A stretch of DNA of 10,108 bases from Promethearchaeota archaeon. GTDB lineage: Archaea; Asgardarchaeota; Lokiarchaeia; Sigyniarchaeales; SOKP01. Where the stretch lies: the NCBI GenBank assembly GCA_048941265.1, contig JBHLNT010000155.1, positions 1 through 10,108 of the forward strand, given 5' to 3'. Under the pieces are notes generated by a model. The model saw nothing but the letters and a program-made list of their open reading frames with translations. It did not search any database and was not told the origin of the DNA. Shown here piece after piece: positions 2,558-10,108 of the stretch (within the stretch, counting starts at the first letter, position 1; every line of letters starts with the position of its first letter). A program made the translations under genes and the position numbers.

Positions 2558-3460
2558 CTAGATACTAGCAAAAATAAATGCAATTAAGCCAAGAAATGCC
2601 CCAACTTTTAATAAAAGACTTATTTTCTTGAAATCTTTTTGTTGCAAATTTTTACGTAATGACAATACTACTGCTAATGCTACATCCGCTAATCCGAAAA
2701 TCATTGAAATCAAAAAGAGTATTGGATTTATAATATTCGTAAATATAGGTAAAATAAAGAATATTATGGCCAATATTTCAAATAAAATCGAAAATCCAGT
2801 AGCTTTTTTAATTCCCAGTTTAATTGCTAAGGTTTTTACTCCCTCTTCCTTATCTCCCTCAATATCTTCACAACCCTTCACAATTTCGCGGGAGAGTAAT
2901 AGAAAGAATGAAGTAAAAAAGAAATAATAGATATAAGCTGGAATTACAATGCTATTTAAGACAGCCCCATAGATAAGCCCGATAGAAAAAGACACACTGA
3001 CCATCAAATTTCCATAAAAACCTGATTTCTTTCCCCAAGCAGCATATAACCATCCAATAAAACCAAAAAAAATCACTAAAAGTACATTTAAACCGCTAAG
3101 GGCGAAAAATAGCCAATGAATCACTGATATTAAAATACCAATTCCGAAAGTAAGAGCAAATAAGATTTTTGCTTGAGTTAGACTTAACTCACCTCTCGGT
3201 AGAGGACGGTTAGGTCTATTTATCTTATCAATTTCAATATCATATATATCATTAATTATCATCCCACTGGCTGCTACAGCGAAATAAGTTAACACCCCAA
3301 GAATTATATTTATGAGCAATGTGTTAAGAGGGATACCCGTTCTCGTATTCAGGAGTCCAATAATTACTGTTAGAGATCCCATTATACAATTGACGGGCCT
3401 TATAATATTAATGCTAGCTGAAATAAGACCTCTCTTTTCAGAATTATTTTTAGTTAACAT
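2558..3460 (-). CDS. Digeranylgeranylglyceryl-phosphate synthase (DGGGPS; UbiA prenyltransferase superfamily)
   Basis: N-terminal IIRPVNC, first Asp-rich motif INDIYDIEIDKINRPNRPLPRG, LYAAWGKKSGFYGNL, and second motif REIVKGCEDIEGDKEEGVKTLAI. It has about 9 TM segments. Confidence 0.88.
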   Translation of the reverse strand: MLTKNNSEKRGLISASINIIRPVNCIMGSLTVIIGLLNTRTGIPLNTLLINIILGVLTYFAVAASGMIINDIYDIEIDKINRPNRPLPRGELSLTQAKILFALTFGIGILISVIHWLFFALSGLNVLLVIFFGFIGWLYAAWGKKSGFYGNLMVSVSFSIGLIYGAVLNSIVIPAYIYYFFFTSFFLLLSREIVKGCEDIEGDKEEGVKTLAIKLGIKKATGFSILFEILAIIFFILPIFTNIINPILFLISMIFGLADVALAVVLSLRKNLQQKDFKKISLLLKVGAFLGLIAFIFASI

Positions 3461-3630: not shown

Positions 3631-4518
3631 ATGCCTAAAGCAAACATTAATGATATCCAAATAGAGTATGAGACCTTCGGAGACTCATCATCAAAACCAT
3701 TACTTTTGGTAATGGGACTTGGTTCTCAGATGATTCGATGGCCTGATGAATTTTGTAAATTACTAGTTAAAAAAGGATTCCATGTTATTCGATTCGATAA
3801 TCGAGATGTTGGTCTATCTACAAAATTAGAAAAAGCGGGAGTACCAGATATAAGATCAGCAATCCTGGCAGCTCAAAAGGGAGAAGAAATAAAAGCACCT
3901 TATTCATTAGAAGATATGGCGGATGATGCGATTGGTGTTTTAGATGCTCTAAATATCGACAAAGCTCATATCTGTGGGGCATCGATGGGAGGGATGATTG
4001 TGCAAATAATTGCATATCGCTATCCAACCCGTGTGTTAAGTCTTACGTCTATCATGAGTAGTACAGGAAATCCTGAGCTTCCTCAAGCAAAACCAGAAAT
4101 TATGCAAATACTTTATACACCTGTACCAAAAAAACGTGAAGCATATATTATAGAATCTATAAAACGGAGACGTATTATTCACGGCTCTGGATTTCCTTTT
4201 GATGAAGAATTAGCACGAAATATGGCAGCTAAAGAATATGATCGTAATTTTTACCCCGTTGGATTGATGCGCCAATTAATAGCTATTATGGCAAATGGAA
4301 ATCGAAAGGTTTCTTTAGCGTCGATTAAAGTGCCAACTCTCGTAATACATGGAAGTGACGATCCCTTAGTTCCAGTAGAAGGAGGAAAAGATACTGCAGA
4401 AGCAATACCAGATGCAGAATTATTAATAATAGAGGGAATGGGCCATAGTTTACCACCGGAAACTTGGTCACAAATTATAAATGCTATTACTTTAAATGCA
4501 TCAAAAATAGACAAATAA
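3631..4518 (+). CDS. Alpha/beta-fold hydrolase (esterase/lipase; LipG/RdmC-like)
   Basis: MGLG oxyanion loop, FDNRDVGLS, nucleophile elbow GASMGG (Ser118), HGSDDPLVP (Asp244) and GMGHSLP (His272). The catalytic triad is complete. Confidence 0.92.
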   Translation: MPKANINDIQIEYETFGDSSSKPLLLVMGLGSQMIRWPDEFCKLLVKKGFHVIRFDNRDVGLSTKLEKAGVPDIRSAILAAQKGEEIKAPYSLEDMADDAIGVLDALNIDKAHICGASMGGMIVQIIAYRYPTRVLSLTSIMSSTGNPELPQAKPEIMQILYTPVPKKREAYIIESIKRRRIIHGSGFPFDEELARNMAAKEYDRNFYPVGLMRQLIAIMANGNRKVSLASIKVPTLVIHGSDDPLVPVEGGKDTAEAIPDAELLIIEGMGHSLPPETWSQIINAITLNASKIDK

Positions 4519-4616: not shown

Positions 4617-6014
4617 TTATAATTTTGATTTTTTCTCAGCGTGAAGTACTTCTAATTTTTCTTTTACATTTTTAAGCTTTTCACCATCTAAAGGATATTT
4701 GTACATAGATAAGAAACCAATTAATAAGGCCATGATTGGAAAAACTGCCATTAAAATCCTTAATCCTAATATAACTTGCGAAGTTACGTTTTTCGGTTCA
4801 TAGACCGCCCATCCGACATTTGTAAACACCAGACTTATAGCAAGGAAAACCAAAATTGTGGTAAATCGAAGACAAAGAGCGTTTACACCATAATATCCCG
4901 CTTCCCTGCGCATACCTGTAATCACCTCATCCTCATCTATGATATCGGCAACAACAATGTCAATTATATATATGGTACCTCCAAATCCCAATCCAAGGAG
5001 TATGAAAATAACATACCCTAATATTGGATCGGTTATAAATATAAGAGGAATAAAGGTCGCAATCCATATCGCAATTGACAATAACCAAGCGCGTCTTGGT
5101 CCCATTTTTTGTACTAACGGTTTCCATAATAGATTTATAAAAATTGCGGCTGAAATAAATGTAAGGCCTATCATTAGAGAAATGAATAATGAATCATTTA
5201 TGCCCAATACAAATTTACCGTATAAAGGCAATAAAGTAGGGACCATCCCAAAAACGAACCATACTGCTACTTCCGTTGGAATATACCGCCTAAAAGACTT
5301 ACTTTTCAGGCACATTTTTACGGACTTCCCTAAACTAGGAGCATTTTTATAGTCTTCCTGAAACTCGGGTTTTTCTTTCGGACCGAATTTTAAAAAAATG
5401 AGACCGGTTATTAGAACGATTATTGTCAAAGTAATTCCAAGAATAGAATATTCCCTTATAAATTTAGGATCGCTATAATCTGGAATGATAAATCCCGGTA
5501 AGAGAAATGCGAATAATAGAGCAATAATCGTAAACGTCTGTCTTATATTATTAGCTTTCGTTCTTTCATTTAAGGTAATAAAAGCCTCCGGAAACAAGGA
5601 AGTCAAATTAAGGCTGAACATCGTATAAAACAGCTCAAATATAATTATGATTAAAATAAAAAAGAGTAAATTTGTGGTTAAATCTGTTATACCGAAAGTC
5701 TTCGGAGGGCTGAATACAAAAAACATAACTATAGCTAAAGGGATTAATCCGGCCGTTATGTAAGGATAGCGACGGCCCCATTTGGTATGAGTTCTATCCG
5801 ACAAATAGCCCAGTAATGGGTCATTAAGTGCATTCCAGACTGACCAGATCATAAAGCCAATTGAAATATAGAGCACGGGAAGTCCTATAATAGCAAAATA
5901 AAAAGTAAATGTGAGAAAAACAAAGCTCTGATACGCCGTGACATCCGCAACTTGTCCAAAACTATATGCAACAGCTTTTTTGTTTGAATATTGATTATCA
6001 TTTTCAGCAATCAT
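4617..6014 (-). CDS. MFS transporter, glycoside-pentoside-hexuronide (GPH / MelB-like, MFS_2) cation symporter
   Basis: 465 aa with about 12 TM. Signatures are WNALNDPLLGYLSDRTHTKWGRRYPY, ERTKANNIRQ, ADIIDEDEVITGMRREAGYYG and C-terminal YPL. Confidence 0.9.
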   Translation of the reverse strand: MIAENDNQYSNKKAVAYSFGQVADVTAYQSFVFLTFTFYFAIIGLPVLYISIGFMIWSVWNALNDPLLGYLSDRTHTKWGRRYPYITAGLIPLAIVMFFVFSPPKTFGITDLTTNLLFFILIIIIFELFYTMFSLNLTSLFPEAFITLNERTKANNIRQTFTIIALLFAFLLPGFIIPDYSDPKFIREYSILGITLTIIVLITGLIFLKFGPKEKPEFQEDYKNAPSLGKSVKMCLKSKSFRRYIPTEVAVWFVFGMVPTLLPLYGKFVLGINDSLFISLMIGLTFISAAIFINLLWKPLVQKMGPRRAWLLSIAIWIATFIPLIFITDPILGYVIFILLGLGFGGTIYIIDIVVADIIDEDEVITGMRREAGYYGVNALCLRFTTILVFLAISLVFTNVGWAVYEPKNVTSQVILGLRILMAVFPIMALLIGFLSMYKYPLDGEKLKNVKEKLEVLHAEKKSKL

Positions 6015-6239
6015 GATAAATTTAAAACCTTTTATTTATGTGTACTTTTTTTGAATAAACAAACAAGGTAAATTAAAGTAAAAAATTACGCTAATCTTAT
6101 TAAAATTATTTAATCCTAATTTTAGAATTTTCTAATAAGACAGAATTTTTATTTTATTAGCTAGTTAAAAAATATGAACTATTAAATAAGTTAGTACCTA
6201 ATAATTTTTTATCACGAAATTAAAAATTACTCTAATATT

Positions 6240-6896
6240 ATGGAAGATAGAGAATTAAAACGGAAGAAAGCACTAAAATTATTTAATATTTATATTGCCA
6301 TTGATCTAGTAATTTTAATTCTATCAATAATGATACCCTATCTCCTTGTTAGGTTAAACCAAGAAATTAACGGTTGCGGTCATCATTCATTTAGCAGTAC
6401 TGGAGCCGGTGCTACTTTCTGGATATGGGGAAGATCGCTCGGATTTACTTGCCTTATTTGGTTTTTCATATCAATTTTTCGGGGCTACACTACGAAAATA
6501 AACGCGACAAAATTTAAGAGTATAGAAAAAGCTAAAAATTTGCACTGCTACGAAGCTTTACTTACTATTATAATCCTTGCATTTCACATAATATTCCTAG
6601 TCACGTCTGAACCATGGAGATCATTAATAAGAGGGAGGAAAGTAGCTCATTTTTCATTTTATTTTTTCAGTTTAAAAATTTGGACGGGAATATTCTATGG
6701 TATTATTATGGTGGGAGCCTCAATGTTATTTTTCTCTTTAAAAAACATAAAAAATCTTAAAAGATTCGGTTATAAAAAGATGATCTGGGTTCATAGAATT
6801 ATGCTTTTATTCTCAATTGTTCTGATAATTCATATATCCTTAATAAACACCGAACTTTGGCTAATGTCCGGAGAAATTGGCGAAGCTGACGATTAG
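6240..6896 (+). CDS. Stand-alone ferric reductase-like transmembrane (di-heme b; FRD/MsrQ/NOX-type) protein
   Basis: About 5 TM with two transmembrane His pairs, H102/H116 (spacing 14) and H185/H198 (spacing 13). LKRFGYKKMIWVHR resembles the R.LGY..W..LH.. loop of this superfamily. There is no FAD/NAD(P)H domain. Confidence 0.7.
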   Translation: MEDRELKRKKALKLFNIYIAIDLVILILSIMIPYLLVRLNQEINGCGHHSFSSTGAGATFWIWGRSLGFTCLIWFFISIFRGYTTKINATKFKSIEKAKNLHCYEALLTIIILAFHIIFLVTSEPWRSLIRGRKVAHFSFYFFSLKIWTGIFYGIIMVGASMLFFSLKNIKNLKRFGYKKMIWVHRIMLLFSIVLIIHISLINTELWLMSGEIGEADD

Positions 6897-7165
6897 TGAT
6901 AAAACAAAAGTTAAATGTAATAATATTTAATTTTCTAAAAACTATAAATAGATAAAGAGGTTGAGAAAGTACCTAAAACATAGGTTATTAGAATCCACAT
7001 TGAGGTTGATGGCTTTGGATATCCATCCTCGAAAATGATGTTATTAGTAATAGGGTTTTGTTTTTAGTTTCTGAAAAAATATAAGTTATAGAATAATAAT
7101 AGATCTTCTAATTTTTAAATTGAAAAGATTCTTTAATAAGATAACTATATAATATAATTTTATTT

Positions 7166-7171
7166 GAGGAG
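7166..7171 (+). promoter_or_regulatory. Shine-Dalgarno GAGGAG
   Basis: GAGGAG lies 6 nt upstream of ATG 7178. A BRE/TATA-like GAAAAG..CTTTAATA lies at about 7122-7138. Confidence 0.55.
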
Positions 7172-7177
7172 AGATTA

Positions 7178-8215
7178 ATGAATTCAAGAGTTTTAACCTT
7201 TGGAGAGATAATGCTTAGATTTTCACCTCCTGGTTTTCAACGTATAACACAAGCAAGGAATTTTGATATAATTTATGGAGGTGGAGAGGCGAATGTTGCA
7301 GTTTCATTAGCTAATTTTGGTATTTCAGTTGATTTTGTGACCAGATTACCAAATAATGAAATTGGAGATGCATGTATTCAATATTTACGACAATTCGGAG
7401 TAAATACAAATAAGATCATAAGAGGTGGTGATCGATTGGGGATATACTTTCTTGAAATTGGAGCTTCAGTACGTCCTAGTAAAGTAATATATGACAGAGC
7501 AAACTCTTCTATTGCAACGGCTAAACCGGATATGTTTGATTGGGACCATATTTTTGAAGGAATCACATGGTTCCATTGGACAGGAATTACCCCAGCAATT
7601 TCTCAAAATCTCGCTGATATCTGTTTAGAAGCTGTGAAAATAGCTAAAGATAAAGGAATTACCATCTCGTGTGATTTGAATTATAGGAGTAAATTATGGA
7701 AATACGGTAAGGATCCATCTGAAATTATACCAGATTTAGTAAAATATTGTGACGTAGCCATCGGGAATGAAGAAGATGCAGATAAAGTTTTAGGAATTAA
7801 GGCTCCAGATATAGATATAACTTCTGGTGATATGGATGCAGCCAAATATGAATACGTGGTGAAAGAGGTTATGAAGGCGTTTCCTAATTTGAAATATGTG
7901 GCAATTACTTTAAGAGGTTCCATTTCAGCAAGTCATAATACTTGGTCGGGTGTTCTCTATGATGGTAAGAAGATGCTAATAGGCCCCCAATATGATATTA
8001 CTTATATCGTCGATCGAGTTGGGGGAGGCGATTCCTTTATGGGCGGTTTGATTTACGGCCTATTAACCAATAAAAATGATCCATATTACGCTTTACGGTT
8101 TGCTTTAGCAGCATCCTGCTTAAAACATACTATATTTGGCGACTTTAATCTAGTTAGTTTAGAAGAAGTCACTAAATTAATGGAAGGAGATACATCGGGA
8201 AGAGTATCAAGATAA
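7178..8215 (+). CDS. kdgK: 2-dehydro-3-deoxygluconokinase (PfkB/ribokinase family sugar kinase)
   Basis: FGEIMLR, YGGGEANVAVSLA, RLGIYFLEIGASVRPSKVIYDRA, FHWTGITPA, DLNYRSKLW, GNEED, TLRGSISASHNTW, PfkB signature DRVGGGDSF and LKHTIFGD. This is a close match to the Bacteroides/Thermotoga/clostridial-type KdgK. Confidence 0.88.
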   Translation: MNSRVLTFGEIMLRFSPPGFQRITQARNFDIIYGGGEANVAVSLANFGISVDFVTRLPNNEIGDACIQYLRQFGVNTNKIIRGGDRLGIYFLEIGASVRPSKVIYDRANSSIATAKPDMFDWDHIFEGITWFHWTGITPAISQNLADICLEAVKIAKDKGITISCDLNYRSKLWKYGKDPSEIIPDLVKYCDVAIGNEEDADKVLGIKAPDIDITSGDMDAAKYEYVVKEVMKAFPNLKYVAITLRGSISASHNTWSGVLYDGKKMLIGPQYDITYIVDRVGGGDSFMGGLIYGLLTNKNDPYYALRFALAASCLKHTIFGDFNLVSLEEVTKLMEGDTSGRVSR

Positions 8216-8277
8216 AATATAATTATAATAAAAACCAACTTAATTAATTATAAAAGTATTTAATGAAGTGAAAAAAA

Positions 8278-9072
8278 GTGGTATTTGAAAAACTAATAAT
8301 AACGGCAACCACCGCCAATTCTTGGATATATCCTGTTGTGAAAAATTGGCCTCAAACCACAGACCAGCTAATTGAGGAGGTGGTGAAGTGTTATGAGGCA
8401 GGAGCTGCCATAGCACATATTCATCTTCCTAGAGGTCAAGAGGTTGAAGTTGTCAAAAAAATCCGGGAACGTTGTGATATTATCATACAAGCAGGTATGT
8501 CAAGTGAATCTATCCCTAAAAGAAAGGGTGATTTTGAAGCGAAACCCGATATGCTGTCTGTGATTTTAAATCATCATGCCGAATATTTTACTAATATCAA
8601 TGTTAACGTTTTACATCCACTTGAAGAACTGGAAGAATATTGTAAAAAATGTAAAAAATATCAGATAAAACCAGAGTGGGAAGTTTGGCATACGGGTTCT
8701 TATTGGAATTTACAACAGTTAATTGACAAAGGATTGATTGATGGACCACACTATTTAACTCTATTCTTTAACTGGCCTGGAGGAACATGGTCTCCTCCTA
8801 CATTTGAAGAATATATGCATAGAGTTAGAAATATGCCCAAAAATTGCTTATATTCAATTAGCACGATGGGTGAAGAACAAACTAAAATTGCGGTGCTATC
8901 TTTAAGTCGCGGTGGTAATATTCGTGTCGGAACCGAAGATTATCCATTTATTGAGAATGAAGTACCCGCAAAAAACAATGCTGAAATTGTTGAAAAATTC
9001 GTAAGCATAAGCAAATATGTAGGAAGGGAAATTGCTGATCCCTCTGAAGCCCGGAAAATTATTGGTATCTAA
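8278..9072 (+). CDS. Beta-keto acid cleavage enzyme family (BKACE / DUF849; 3-keto-5-aminohexanoate cleavage-like)
   Basis: KLIITA, P.T..., CYEAGAAIAHIH (Zn-binding H47/H49), KPEWE, GGNIRVGTED, NAEIVE and GREIADPSEARKIIG. It has a GTG start. The substrate cannot be assigned. Confidence 0.88.
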   Translation: MVFEKLIITATTANSWIYPVVKNWPQTTDQLIEEVVKCYEAGAAIAHIHLPRGQEVEVVKKIRERCDIIIQAGMSSESIPKRKGDFEAKPDMLSVILNHHAEYFTNINVNVLHPLEELEEYCKKCKKYQIKPEWEVWHTGSYWNLQQLIDKGLIDGPHYLTLFFNWPGGTWSPPTFEEYMHRVRNMPKNCLYSISTMGEEQTKIAVLSLSRGGNIRVGTEDYPFIENEVPAKNNAEIVEKFVSISKYVGREIADPSEARKIIGI

Positions 9073-9152
9073 TTTAGATATGATGAGATTAGAAGAAACT
9101 AAATATAAATTTATTTAAATAATTTTTTAAATAATTTGATTATTCCTTACTT

Positions 9153-10108
9153 ATGAACAATGATATTATAAATCTGCATACTGTTTTCATTGGAAAACCA
9201 CAATGGGAAGCTGGATGGCCATATATAGGTTATGATAATGATAAATTAATAGAAAATATAATTAATCATCTTAAACAGAAATTCCCTCTGATTAATTTTA
9301 CCTATAATGAAGTTGTTGGCATATATGACAAAGATTTAATAAAAAAAATCAAGGAAGATATAGTAAAAGCAGATGGAGTAATAATTTTTACTATAGGGCA
9401 TTATGGTTATCCTGGGATTATAAAAGCCGGAATAGAATTTATTGAAATCGGAAAGCCTGTTATTTTAGCAAATTTAATTTATGCTGGAGATCATACATTT
9501 ACAAAAATTTATGTTAGTATAAAAGAAAAGAATTATCATGTTTATCCCATATCTTCCAAAAATATTGAAGATTTCGACAAACCCATCGCAATTTTATCTA
9601 ATCTTTTACGACTTAGAGGTACAAATGTTTTAGTTTATGCTAGTGATAAAATTAAGATGGATTGGGAAATAATTCTTGGATTATTTAATCCAGAGCGAAA
9701 AAAACTTAGAAAAGAAAGCCCTGAATTTATTGAGCAAATAGGTAAAATGAGCGGAAATGCTAATTTTGAATTCTATACCGATACAGAGGGATTTGATCAA
9801 GCTCATCAATGGAGAAAAGATGAAATGAAGTATAGAGAAAATATGAAAAATATCTTTGATGTAGGGATGATAAGGGGAGATCCAGATGAGATTGTTAAGT
9901 ATTACAAAAAGGTCGACGAAGAGGAAGCAAATGTAATTGCGGATAAATGGATTAAAAATGCTAAAAAAATTGAACCAACCGAAAAAACTATATTAAATTC
10001 AGCAAAGTTATATATCGCTTTTAAAAATATTTTAAATGATAAAAATTGCAGGATATTTGCTCCAGATTGTGGTACTTTTCTTTTAACAGGGAAATTACCT
10101 GCTTATCC
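9153..10108 (+). CDS. L-fucose/L-arabinose isomerase-like protein, 3'-truncated by the window edge
   Basis: Translated by hand, absent from the ORF track. ATG at 9153, open for 318 codons to the edge: MNNDIINLHTVFIGKPQWEAGWPYIGYD...ADGVIIF...GKPVIL...YAG...VDEEEANVIADKWIKNAKKIEPTEKTILNSAKLYIAFKNILNDKNCRIFAPDCGTFLLTGKLPAYP. The 'SA.LY.A.K.....DC.......AYP(C)' pattern is typical of FucI/AraA-like isomerases. The metal-binding residues would lie beyond the window. Confidence 0.72.
   Translation, partial: MNNDIINLHTVFIGKPQWEAGWPYIGYDNDKLIENIINHLKQKFPLINFTYNEVVGIYDKDLIKKIKEDIVKADGVIIFTIGHYGYPGIIKAGIEFIEIGKPVILANLIYAGDHTFTKIYVSIKEKNYHVYPISSKNIEDFDKPIAILSNLLRLRGTNVLVYASDKIKMDWEIILGLFNPERKKLRKESPEFIEQIGKMSGNANFEFYTDTEGFDQAHQWRKDEMKYRENMKNIFDVGMIRGDPDEIVKYYKKVDEEEANVIADKWIKNAKKIEPTEKTILNSAKLYIAFKNILNDKNCRIFAPDCGTFLLTGKLPAY

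Follow-up and report, generated by a model that had tools for sequence, protein, structure and literature searches.

A conserved five-enzyme gene module around a distant BKACE-family protein in Asgard archaea: a candidate sugar-acid pathway with a KdgK-type kinase as a frequent neighbor

Organization of the locus

We analyzed a 10,108-nt stretch of DNA (the window) from a Promethearchaeota archaeon (GenBank assembly GCA_048941265.1, contig JBHLNT010000155.1) that ends in a trio of genes encoding a kinase of the 2-keto-3-deoxygluconate (KDG) kinase type (KdgK), an enzyme of the BKACE family and a protein with the fold of L-arabinose isomerase (AraA) and L-fucose isomerase (FucI), referred to below as gene 3. 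The initial annotation of this DNA had described three co-oriented genes with gaps of 62 and 80 nt, and the open reading frames (ORFs) at 7178-8215, 8278-9072 and 9153 onward agree with that description; all three are on the + strand, and the spacers lie at 8216-8277 (62 nt) and 9073-9152 (80 nt). Both gaps are AT-rich, with uninformative TATA-like strings throughout, and a run of six T (near 9124) stands between the BKACE gene and gene 3. The features are:

7178-8215, + strand: KdgK-type PfkB sugar-acid kinase, 345 amino acids (aa), PfkB Pfam match of 109.7 bits
8278-9072, + strand: BKACE-family (DUF849) Zn TIM-barrel enzyme, 264 aa, GTG start
9153-10108 (codons to 10106), + strand: gene 3, N-terminal 318 residues of an AraA/FucI-fold protein, open at the window end

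The window is the complete contig C165 of a metagenome-assembled genome (MAG) of 5.0 Mb in 361 contigs, with a completeness of 91%, a contamination of 4.8% and a G+C content of ~30%. Asgard names, Promethearchaeota and Lokiarchaeota among them, are attached to the close homologs of its proteins. Its last 77 nt (window 10032-10108) are exactly the first 77 nt of contig C303, and the end of C303 likewise shares 77 nt with the start of C100, which chains the three contigs. We read these overlaps as assembly-graph overlaps, so that the locus was split by the assembly and not by biology; a genome of the window's genus (G001) has the same gene order uninterrupted. The trio is the 5' end of a ~19-kb catabolic locus that continues on C303, where the reading frame of gene 3 carries on for 205 codons (C303:1-618) to give a full protein of ~498 aa. 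Gene 3 is followed on C303 by genes for a URO-D-like protein, a second GPH symporter, a short-chain dehydrogenase/reductase (SDR1; C303:3458-4219) and a sulfatase, then on the opposite strand by a second short-chain dehydrogenase/reductase (SDR2) and an M24/creatinase-type hydrolase (M24; C303:6605-7738), then by a Gfo/Idh/MocA dehydrogenase (GFO), and finally by lipid genes. Three genes therefore stand between the BKACE gene and SDR1 in this genome.

Conservation of the genomic neighborhood

A search of 41 related genomes identified clear BKACE orthologs (60-86% identical) in 13 genomes besides the window's own. The order that recurs in 12 ortholog loci is KdgK, BKACE and SDR1, then SDR2 and M24, then GFO; an insertion of gene 3, the URO-D-like gene, the GPH symporter and the sulfatase separates BKACE from SDR1 in the window's genus only, one genome of which has the URO-D-like gene and no gene 3. 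The KdgK-BKACE-gene 3 trio of the window recurs in G001 and G008. The BKACE ortholog (at least 60% identical) and the M24 ortholog occur in an identical set of 14 of the 41 genomes.

Species-representative genomes were then scanned more widely, and of the 241 relatives recovered the best 80 loci were examined. ORFs of at least 80 aa were taken under a simple non-overlap rule, and their labels came from BLAST comparison with the proteins of the window and of C303 and from clustering at 45% identity; the Pfam names given to recurring neighbor clusters come from one representative each. Many of these loci are cut by contig ends, and 77 of them have an upstream gene and 77 a downstream gene. The neighbors of the BKACE gene are:

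Directly downstream (n = 77): SDR1 40; URO-D-like 11; DMT-type transporter 9; gene 3 4
Directly upstream (n = 77): KdgK 37; Eda preceded by KdgK 4 (41 in total)
Within 6 genes on either side (n = 80): M24 53; SDR1 47; SDR2 47; GFO 46; KdgK 42; DMT transporter 23; SCP2 22; GH5 19; PIG-L deacetylase 18; URO-D-like 15; Asp/Glu-racemase family 12; GH20 12; gene 3 6

The spacing between the BKACE gene and SDR1 is 3-45 nt in 37 of the 40 cases, and KdgK and BKACE are separated by 26 nt or less, or overlap, in 25 of 37. The linkage proposed in the initial annotation is therefore recurrent for kdgK and the BKACE gene (41 of 77 loci) and fails for the isomerase-like gene, which occurs in 10 of the 80 loci. 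The carbohydrate setting that had also been proposed is borne out by the recurrence of GH5, GH20, PIG-L and transporter genes, and when 150 of the 169 unlabeled neighbor clusters were scanned with Pfam, transporters were the commonest families. The conserved core thus consists of five enzymes, BKACE with SDR1, M24 with SDR2, and GFO, and the trio is not this core; sugar-type transporters accompany the module, and in Promethearchaeota-type genomes KdgK, sometimes together with Eda, is often present as the exit into central metabolism. The three single-contig genomes among the 41 relatives (G032, G033 and G038) contain no BKACE ortholog, their best matches being 32-34% identical or missing, and the module may be absent from the most complete, possibly cultured, representatives.

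The partner enzymes were compared with named families. The M24 protein, a dinuclear metallohydrolase, retains the five prolidase metal ligands (D, D, H, E, E) and in the ESM Atlas matches clusters named 'Peptidase M24' only. An ectoine-hydrolase model aligns with it end-to-end and gives 70.7 bits, a small fraction of the cut-off of 575. SDR1 and SDR2 are classical SDRs similar to beta-hydroxyacid and hydroxyacyl dehydrogenases; their nearest named relatives include 3-hydroxybutyrate dehydrogenase, DHRS6, glucose 1-dehydrogenase and MFE-2 hydroxyacyl-CoA dehydrogenase. GFO comes nearest to the inositol 2-dehydrogenase and 1,5-anhydrofructose reductase types without reaching either cut-off.

The BKACE protein

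The 264-aa protein matches the Pfam BKACE model PF05853 with 173.2 bits (cut-off 24.8; model positions 2-274), and it falls below every NCBIfam BKACE equivalog cut-off (145.2 of 382, 102.9 of 430, 102.9 of 350 and 84.1 of 725 bits; Kce, 3-oxoadipate and 3,5-dioxohexanoate types). Orthologs are 60-87% identical and paralogs at most 36%, and 15 orthologs have a mean column identity of 73%; the protein defines a distinct subfamily, mostly of Asgard archaea. At E <= 1e-20 it matches 1294 clusters (90% identity), paralogs included, and none of the best 120 falls below 66% identity.

Residues H47, H49, E135, R216, E220 and D221 are invariant in all 15 orthologs. In an alignment to Kce, for which we take the residue numbers to be E143, R226, Asp231 and Ser82, the residues H47, H49 and E220 correspond to the Zn ligands, E135 to the catalytic Glu, and R216 and D221 to Arg226 and Asp231. 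In BKACE15 the residue equivalent to E135 (E171; E143 of Kce) is reported to be needed for activity, and the Arg is R254 (PMC11961710). An AlphaFold model of the protein (predicted local distance difference test, pLDDT, 87.8) was matched by Foldseek to the Kce, BKACE15 and DUF849 structures 2Y7D, 8RIP, 3LOT and 3C6C with template modeling (TM) scores of 0.84-0.86 and E ~1e-18, and its TM score to cis-epoxysuccinate hydrolase is 0.81. An invariant N98-H99-H100-x-E102 stretch lies in a low-confidence loop of the model. We infer that the Trp- and Asn/Ser-rich pocket would suit a polyhydroxylated substrate.

The genome holds five more BKACE matches that score much higher against the Pfam model (143-304 bits) on contigs C61, C24 and C330, two of them in tandem on C61 and two cut by contig ends; these five are probably the organism's canonical amino-acid or keto-acid BKACEs.

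The kinase, Eda and the routes to KDG

The best NCBIfam match of the kinase is the kinase half (model positions 242-580) of the KHG/KDPG-aldolase/sugar-kinase fusion NF041633, with 517.6 bits against a cut-off of 700 that is set for the whole fusion; the scores against the KDG and KDGal kinase equivalogs (217 of 440 and 111.8 of 400 bits) are both below cut-off, and the translation contains a GGGD motif. On this sequence evidence the product of 7178-8215 is probably a 2-keto-3-deoxygluconate kinase, and the name given to it is likely right although no equivalog cut-off is reached. It is the sole close KdgK in the genome, the remaining PfkB genes being at most 30% identical. KdgK orthologs are found in 26 of the 41 genomes, 12 of which have no BKACE ortholog.

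The genome also has a single canonical Eda (C50:5606-6229; PF01081, 232 bits). An Eda gene is present in 7 of the 80 loci: in 4 of them a PRK07114-type gene stands directly between kdgK and the BKACE gene, one of these in-cluster genes being confirmed at 320.9 bits (cut-off 275), and in the three further loci an Eda of the C50 type lies elsewhere in the fetched stretch. Other contigs of the genome encode UxaC, UxuA, an altronate-dehydratase-like protein, an MR_MLE member and two IlvD/EDD proteins. Because Eda and these hexuronate and aldonate genes lie elsewhere and there is one close KdgK, the kinase looks like the general KDG funnel of the genome.

Two roles for the BKACE protein in forming KDG were considered and put aside. 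A missing KDG-forming dehydratase is not required, with UxuA, the altronate-dehydratase-like protein, MR_MLE and IlvD/EDD proteins present elsewhere. A replacement for KduI in the use of unsaturated uronates was set aside because no GH88 or GH105 protein scored above cut-off and there is thus no need for it; KduI itself was not found in this 91% complete genome.

Gene 3

The window part of gene 3 has no Pfam, NCBIfam or PDB sequence match. The G001 ortholog is uninterrupted (500 aa; L037:8065-9567) and 86% identical to the window part, and it was used, with a 31-sequence alignment, to model the protein (pLDDT 91.8; predicted TM score, pTM, 0.92). At full length this ortholog matches no family except the sulfoquinovose isomerase SftI, a faint hit of 24 bits (cut-off 700), and a phmmer search of the PDB gives E 0.78 to AraA. 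Over its full length the model, which has their three-domain fold, is matched by Foldseek to L-arabinose isomerases with E 4e-21 to 1.2e-20, TM scores of 0.62-0.65 and ~12% identity, and to L-fucose isomerases with E 2e-12. In E. coli AraA we take the catalytic Glu pair and the Mn ligands to be E306, E333, H350 and H450. A weak hhalign alignment to E. coli AraA (probability 20%, E 1e-3) sets the invariant E336 opposite Glu306, and in the same low-confidence alignment AraA Glu333 stands opposite Ser359 and the His ligands of AraA lie beyond the aligned part. The family comprises ~130 clusters in which all given names are 'hypothetical protein', all named sources are archaea and no Pfam assignment is found. 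The label 'FucI/AraA-like' is therefore correct at the level of the modeled fold only: the fold of the ortholog agrees with it, and membership of the sequence families does not follow.

The distribution of gene 3 is decoupled from that of the BKACE gene. Its 10 occurrences anywhere in the 80 loci include 6 within six genes of the BKACE gene, and it is the direct downstream neighbor in 4 of 77. It is present in 13 of the 41 genomes, 4 of which have no BKACE, five BKACE-positive genomes are without it, and in six genomes that have both, the two genes are on separate contigs. In 10 fetched gene 3 loci away from BKACE (L131-L140) a GPH symporter is adjacent in 5 and two genes off in 2, and sulfatase-like genes adjoin gene 3 in 2. 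Gene 3 with the GPH symporter, at times with a sulfatase, looks like a portable unit for the uptake and isomerization of a possibly sulfated sugar. Gene 3 is an accessory neighbor of the BKACE module and not a core member.

Bacterial copies of the module

Five of the 80 records carry bacterial labels. Two of these, L096 (Ignavibacteria label) and L111 (Nanopelagicaceae label), have ~31.5% G+C, a gene order like that of Promethearchaeota loci and BKACEs that group within the Promethearchaeota sequences, and on these grounds they are probably Asgard contigs mis-binned into bacterial MAGs. Two Spirochaetota contigs (L115 and L125; 55-56% G+C) and the Dehalococcoidia-labeled L117 (54.5% G+C) look genuinely different.

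The Spirochaetota contigs have a co-oriented string of M24-like, GFO-like and sugar-type ABC transporter genes, the BKACE gene, SDR1 and a regulator-type gene, with an SDR2-like gene following GFO in L125. The L125 transporter consists of an SBP_bac_1 binding protein and two permeases, and the regulator after SDR1 is a GntR/FCD protein; the permeases and regulator of L115 were assigned by sequence clusters shared with L125, the annotation coming from L125 only. Next door on the opposite strand, L125 encodes an enolase-superfamily (MR_MLE) dehydratase, a KDGal kinase, an IlvD/EDD dehydratase and an FGGY kinase. The Spirochaetota and Asgard proteins are 63-66% identical for BKACE and 58-60% for SDR1, and only 27-28% for M24 and GFO. 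Since M24 and GFO are divergent while BKACE and SDR1 are close, these families have been assembled twice independently, which argues for a functional unit, and the BKACE-SDR1 pair appears to be the part that moved. L117 has the whole module (GH5, BKACE, SDR1, GFO, SCP2, M24 and SDR2) with genes for Eda, a KdgK-like protein and an ADP-forming acyl-CoA-synthetase-like protein upstream, the Eda and KdgK-like genes lying two genes upstream of BKACE; it is a candidate for inter-domain transfer of the full cluster.

Flanking genes

The remaining features of the window and two rows from C303 (L015) are:

2558-3460, - strand: UbiA-type prenyltransferase, an archaeal lipid gene
3631-4518, + strand: alpha/beta-hydrolase; macrolide-esterase models are best, at 224 bits, below the cut-off of 420
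4617-6014, - strand: GPH-family sugar:cation symporter; MFS_2 188.5 bits; TIGR00792 137.7 bits, below the cut-off of 231
6240-6896, + strand: predicted membrane ORF, 218 aa, in the spacer 6015-7177 between the GPH gene and kdgK
C303 626-1951: URO-D/MtaA-like protein, PF01208 38 bits
C303 9086-11323, - strand: PcrB/GGGP synthase and geranylgeranyl reductase

The GPH symporter is, as first described, about 1.2 kb upstream on the other strand; it lies 1163 nt from kdgK and is divergent from the cluster. This placement is kept only in G001, the closest relative seen, whose ortholog is 88% identical and adjoins kdgK at 130 nt, the 218-aa ORF and its spacer being absent there. The ORF has no Pfam or NCBIfam match, and its membership in the system is doubtful. 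Because the UbiA and GPH genes adjoin in G001, the alpha/beta-hydrolase gene is an insertion in this genome. Both flanks of the catabolic locus are archaeal membrane-lipid genes, the UbiA-type prenyltransferase on one side and the PcrB/GGGP synthase and geranylgeranyl reductase on the other. The URO-D-like gene, which is in 15 of the 80 loci, is the direct downstream neighbor of BKACE in 11 of 77 and its upstream neighbor in 2; its product might act on a methylated or decorated sugar.

Comparison with known systems

Literature searches, which did not extend to the supplementary tables of BKACE papers, returned no description of the kdgK-BKACE-isomerase combination or of the module, so the trio is still, as the initial annotation had it, a combination for which no paper describing a pathway was found. 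A described BKACE pathway in sugar-acid catabolism does exist. In the oxidative 2-deoxy-D-ribonate pathway an SDR and a BKACE are reported to be required in three bacterial genera (Pseudomonas simiae, Paraburkholderia and Burkholderia; Price et al. 2019, PMC6365646), and the logic proposed there leads from a sugar acid to a beta-keto acid and, by acetyl-CoA-dependent cleavage, to acetoacetate and a hydroxyacyl-CoA, the cleavage step resting in that report on genetics and not on an assay. As in the Asgard module, the SDR and BKACE genes of that pathway lie side by side and are accompanied by sugar-type transporters (PMC6365646); an SDR gene beside the BKACE gene is found here in the same 40 of 77 loci, with gaps mostly of 3-45 nt. 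The lactonase, molybdenum dehydrogenase and glycerate kinase of the deoxyribonate pathway were not seen in the Asgard locus, whereas M24, GFO and a second SDR are additions of the Asgard module, which lies with KdgK and Eda. The Asgard BKACE belongs to a separate, mostly Asgard subfamily; the genetically validated Pseudomonas pair is PS417_07245 and PS417_07250.

With Kce the protein shares the Pfam family, the TIM-barrel fold (TM 0.84-0.86), the Zn ligands, the catalytic Glu and the Arg. It differs from Kce in its 22-27% identity to solved BKACEs, its score (145 against 382 bits), a loop deletion and a Trp-rich pocket, and its locus has no lysine-fermentation genes nearby. The funnel of KdgK and Eda known from hexuronate use and the semi-phosphorylative Entner-Doudoroff pathway has its counterpart here in the KdgK-type PfkB kinase and in the Eda of the genome and of some clusters; unlike in that funnel, the KdgK of the window lies apart from Eda and adjoins enzymes outside any described route to KDG. 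Gene 3 resembles AraA and FucI in a whole-length fold match and, by the weak alignment, in E336 opposite AraA Glu306, and is unlike them in its ~12% identity and in its partner, which is a GPH symporter (often with a sulfatase) and not an FGGY kinase.

The anaerobic phloroglucinol pathway (PGR, DPGC, TfD and TAL), as described, also combines an SDR reductase and a BKACE-family lyase in one cluster; its ring opener is of the 'cyclase' family and its second dehydrogenase of the 3-hydroxyacyl-CoA-dehydrogenase type (PMC10470551). The Asgard BKACE reaches 102.9 bits against the triacetate-lyase model (cut-off 430). We rejected membership in this pathway, the ring opener described there being of the 'cyclase' family and not M24 (PMC10470551). 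BKACE gene contexts, mostly from Pseudomonadota, are also analyzed in the NetSyn preprint.

Proposed function and alternatives

The reading that we favor, tentatively and with less than even confidence, is that SDR1 and the BKACE protein carry out a step on a sugar-derived beta-hydroxy/beta-keto acid within the Asgard five-enzyme module, with KdgK and Eda as the funnel. Cleavage with acetyl-CoA is favored because the catalytic set is intact, an SDR is the tightest partner and the pairing in the deoxyribonate pathway is genetically validated. The M24 hydrolase, with the PIG-L deacetylase where present, would free a sugar-derived carboxylic acid from an amide-bearing glycoconjugate, and SDR1 would oxidize the beta-hydroxyl of this acid to give a beta-keto acid. 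The BKACE protein would bind the beta-keto acid through Zn (His47, His49 and Glu220), with Glu135 as the base, and would split the C2-C3 bond with acetyl-CoA to yield acetoacetate and a shortened hydroxyacyl-CoA, as in the deoxyribonate SDR and BKACE step. KdgK and Eda, the latter elsewhere in the genome or in-cluster in some genomes, would take the 2-keto-3-deoxy sugar-acid branch. Gene 3, the URO-D-like protein, the second GPH symporter and the sulfatase are a lineage-level insertion that probably feeds an additional sugar.

Several points weigh against this proposal. It is difficult to see how KdgK could receive a C6 product if the molecule in question is cleaved. No CoA-transferase, thiolase or acyl-CoA dehydrogenase is among the 25 commonest Pfam families of the scanned neighbor clusters, where Succ_CoA_lig occurs in 2 of the 150, and with no recurrent CoA-handling neighbor an acetyl-CoA-dependent step is without support from context. 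KdgK adjacency occurs in no Thor-, Hel- or Atabey-labeled locus and in none of the three high-GC bacterial loci (L115, L117 and L125). The subfamily is far from all characterized BKACEs (22-27% identity to the solved structures), it has a 3-residue deletion at the 'IST' loop of Kce ('QISTGG'), and it has six invariant Trp residues (W16, W24, W137, W143, W166 and W171), none of which is aligned with a Trp in Kce. The BKACE fold also hosts a group 'G7' that the NetSyn preprint describes as catalytically inactive, and it is shared with the non-BKACE chemistry of cis-epoxysuccinate hydrolase, a Zn-dependent epoxide hydrolase. The genomes compared are kin, so the counts overstate independence, and the substrate and activity assignments of the module are proposals.

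It is possible, and in view of the missing CoA partner and of a pocket very unlike that of Kce nearly as likely as the favored reading, that this BKACE-fold protein acts without CoA, on a sugar acid of the keto or amino type, and that its product, or that of SDR1, is the substrate of KdgK. Decarboxylation of a beta-keto acid of the 4-keto-uronate type, dehydration or deamination, and the opening of a ring or ether are options of this kind. They would agree with the tight association of BKACE with KdgK and Eda in Promethearchaeota-type loci (41 of 77, with Eda between in 4), with the lack of a recurrent CoA-handling neighbor, with the loop deletion, the six Trp residues and the N-H-H-x-E stretch of the pocket, with the presence of a Zn-dependent epoxide hydrolase in the fold, and with the GntR/FCD regulator and sugar-acid genes (MR_MLE dehydratase, KDGal kinase) beside the operon in L125. 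Against this, all residues of the BKACE catalytic set are invariant, the Glu base and the Arg among them, while the family members without BKACE activity are grouped in the NetSyn preprint as missing a catalytic residue. Moreover, UxaC, UxuA, the altronate-dehydratase-like protein, MR_MLE and two IlvD/EDD proteins are already encoded for making KDG, so no missing step calls for a new enzyme, and in the variant that replaces KduI there is no need for the enzyme with no GH88 or GH105 above cut-off.

We consider it unlikely that KdgK and the BKACE module are neighbors merely through shared ancestry or the clustering of sugar genes and act on different substrates, KdgK being the single KDG funnel for hexuronate and aldonate routes encoded elsewhere. 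Such a separation would account for KdgK being the sole close copy in the genome, for the canonical hexuronate genes on other contigs, for the wider occurrence of KdgK than of the module (26 against 14 of 41 genomes) and for an adjacency confined to one part of the tree. Against it, the adjacency holds over BKACE identities of 63-87% despite variable flanks, with gaps of 26 nt or less or overlaps in 25 of 37. A quick maximum-likelihood tree of the 80 BKACE sequences requires at least 7 changes of the KdgK-adjacency label, that is, gains or losses of adjacency, on well-supported branches, and the Dehalococcoidia-labeled contig (54.5% GC) has Eda and a KdgK-like gene two genes upstream of BKACE.

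KDG and 2-keto-3-deoxy-6-phosphogluconate (KDPG) are alpha-keto-gamma-hydroxy acids and not beta-keto acids. The model of the initial annotation, an isomerase, kinase and cleavage route in which the BKACE protein takes the slot of Eda and cleaves KDG, KDPG or a keto acid derived from the isomerase and kinase, is very improbable: the trio is co-oriented and closely spaced in the window and is repeated in G001 and G008, but a canonical Eda is encoded on C50 and Eda is present in 7 of the 80 loci (between kdgK and BKACE in 4), neither KDG nor KDPG is, by established chemistry, a beta-keto acid, BKACE stands without KdgK next to it in 36 of 77 loci, 12 genomes have a KdgK ortholog and no BKACE ortholog, and gene 3 adjoins BKACE in 4 of 77 loci and is decoupled from it across the 41 genomes.

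Beyond the favored SDR and BKACE step, a broader proposal can be framed, which we regard as improbable when taken as a whole: that M24, GFO, the two SDRs and BKACE form an undescribed pathway for an amide-bearing sugar acid or glycoconjugate, in which the BKACE protein would perform a new C-C cleavage or decarboxylation of a keto sugar acid and feed KdgK and Eda, that this pathway is widespread in Asgard archaea, and that Asgard archaea, Spirochaetota and Chloroflexota have exchanged its BKACE-SDR pair. One class of candidate substrates for such a pathway would be the amino- or uronic-acid sugars, N-acylated or linked to peptides, of cell-wall polymers or glycolipids.

Significance

Among known prokaryotes, Asgard archaea are the nearest relatives of eukaryotes, and what is known of their diet in sediments comes mostly from annotation. 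For the pathway first proposed the result is mainly a negative one, in that an aldolase is present after all and the isomerase-like gene lies outside the conserved unit. The module itself is common and strongly conserved in Asgard archaea, and its BKACE is annotated everywhere as a lysine-fermentation enzyme, which its context contradicts. Knowledge of the substrate of this BKACE would extend the family by a new reaction or substrate class, put right a systematic mis-annotation in metabolic reconstructions and account for a gene pair shared by Asgard archaea and bacteria.

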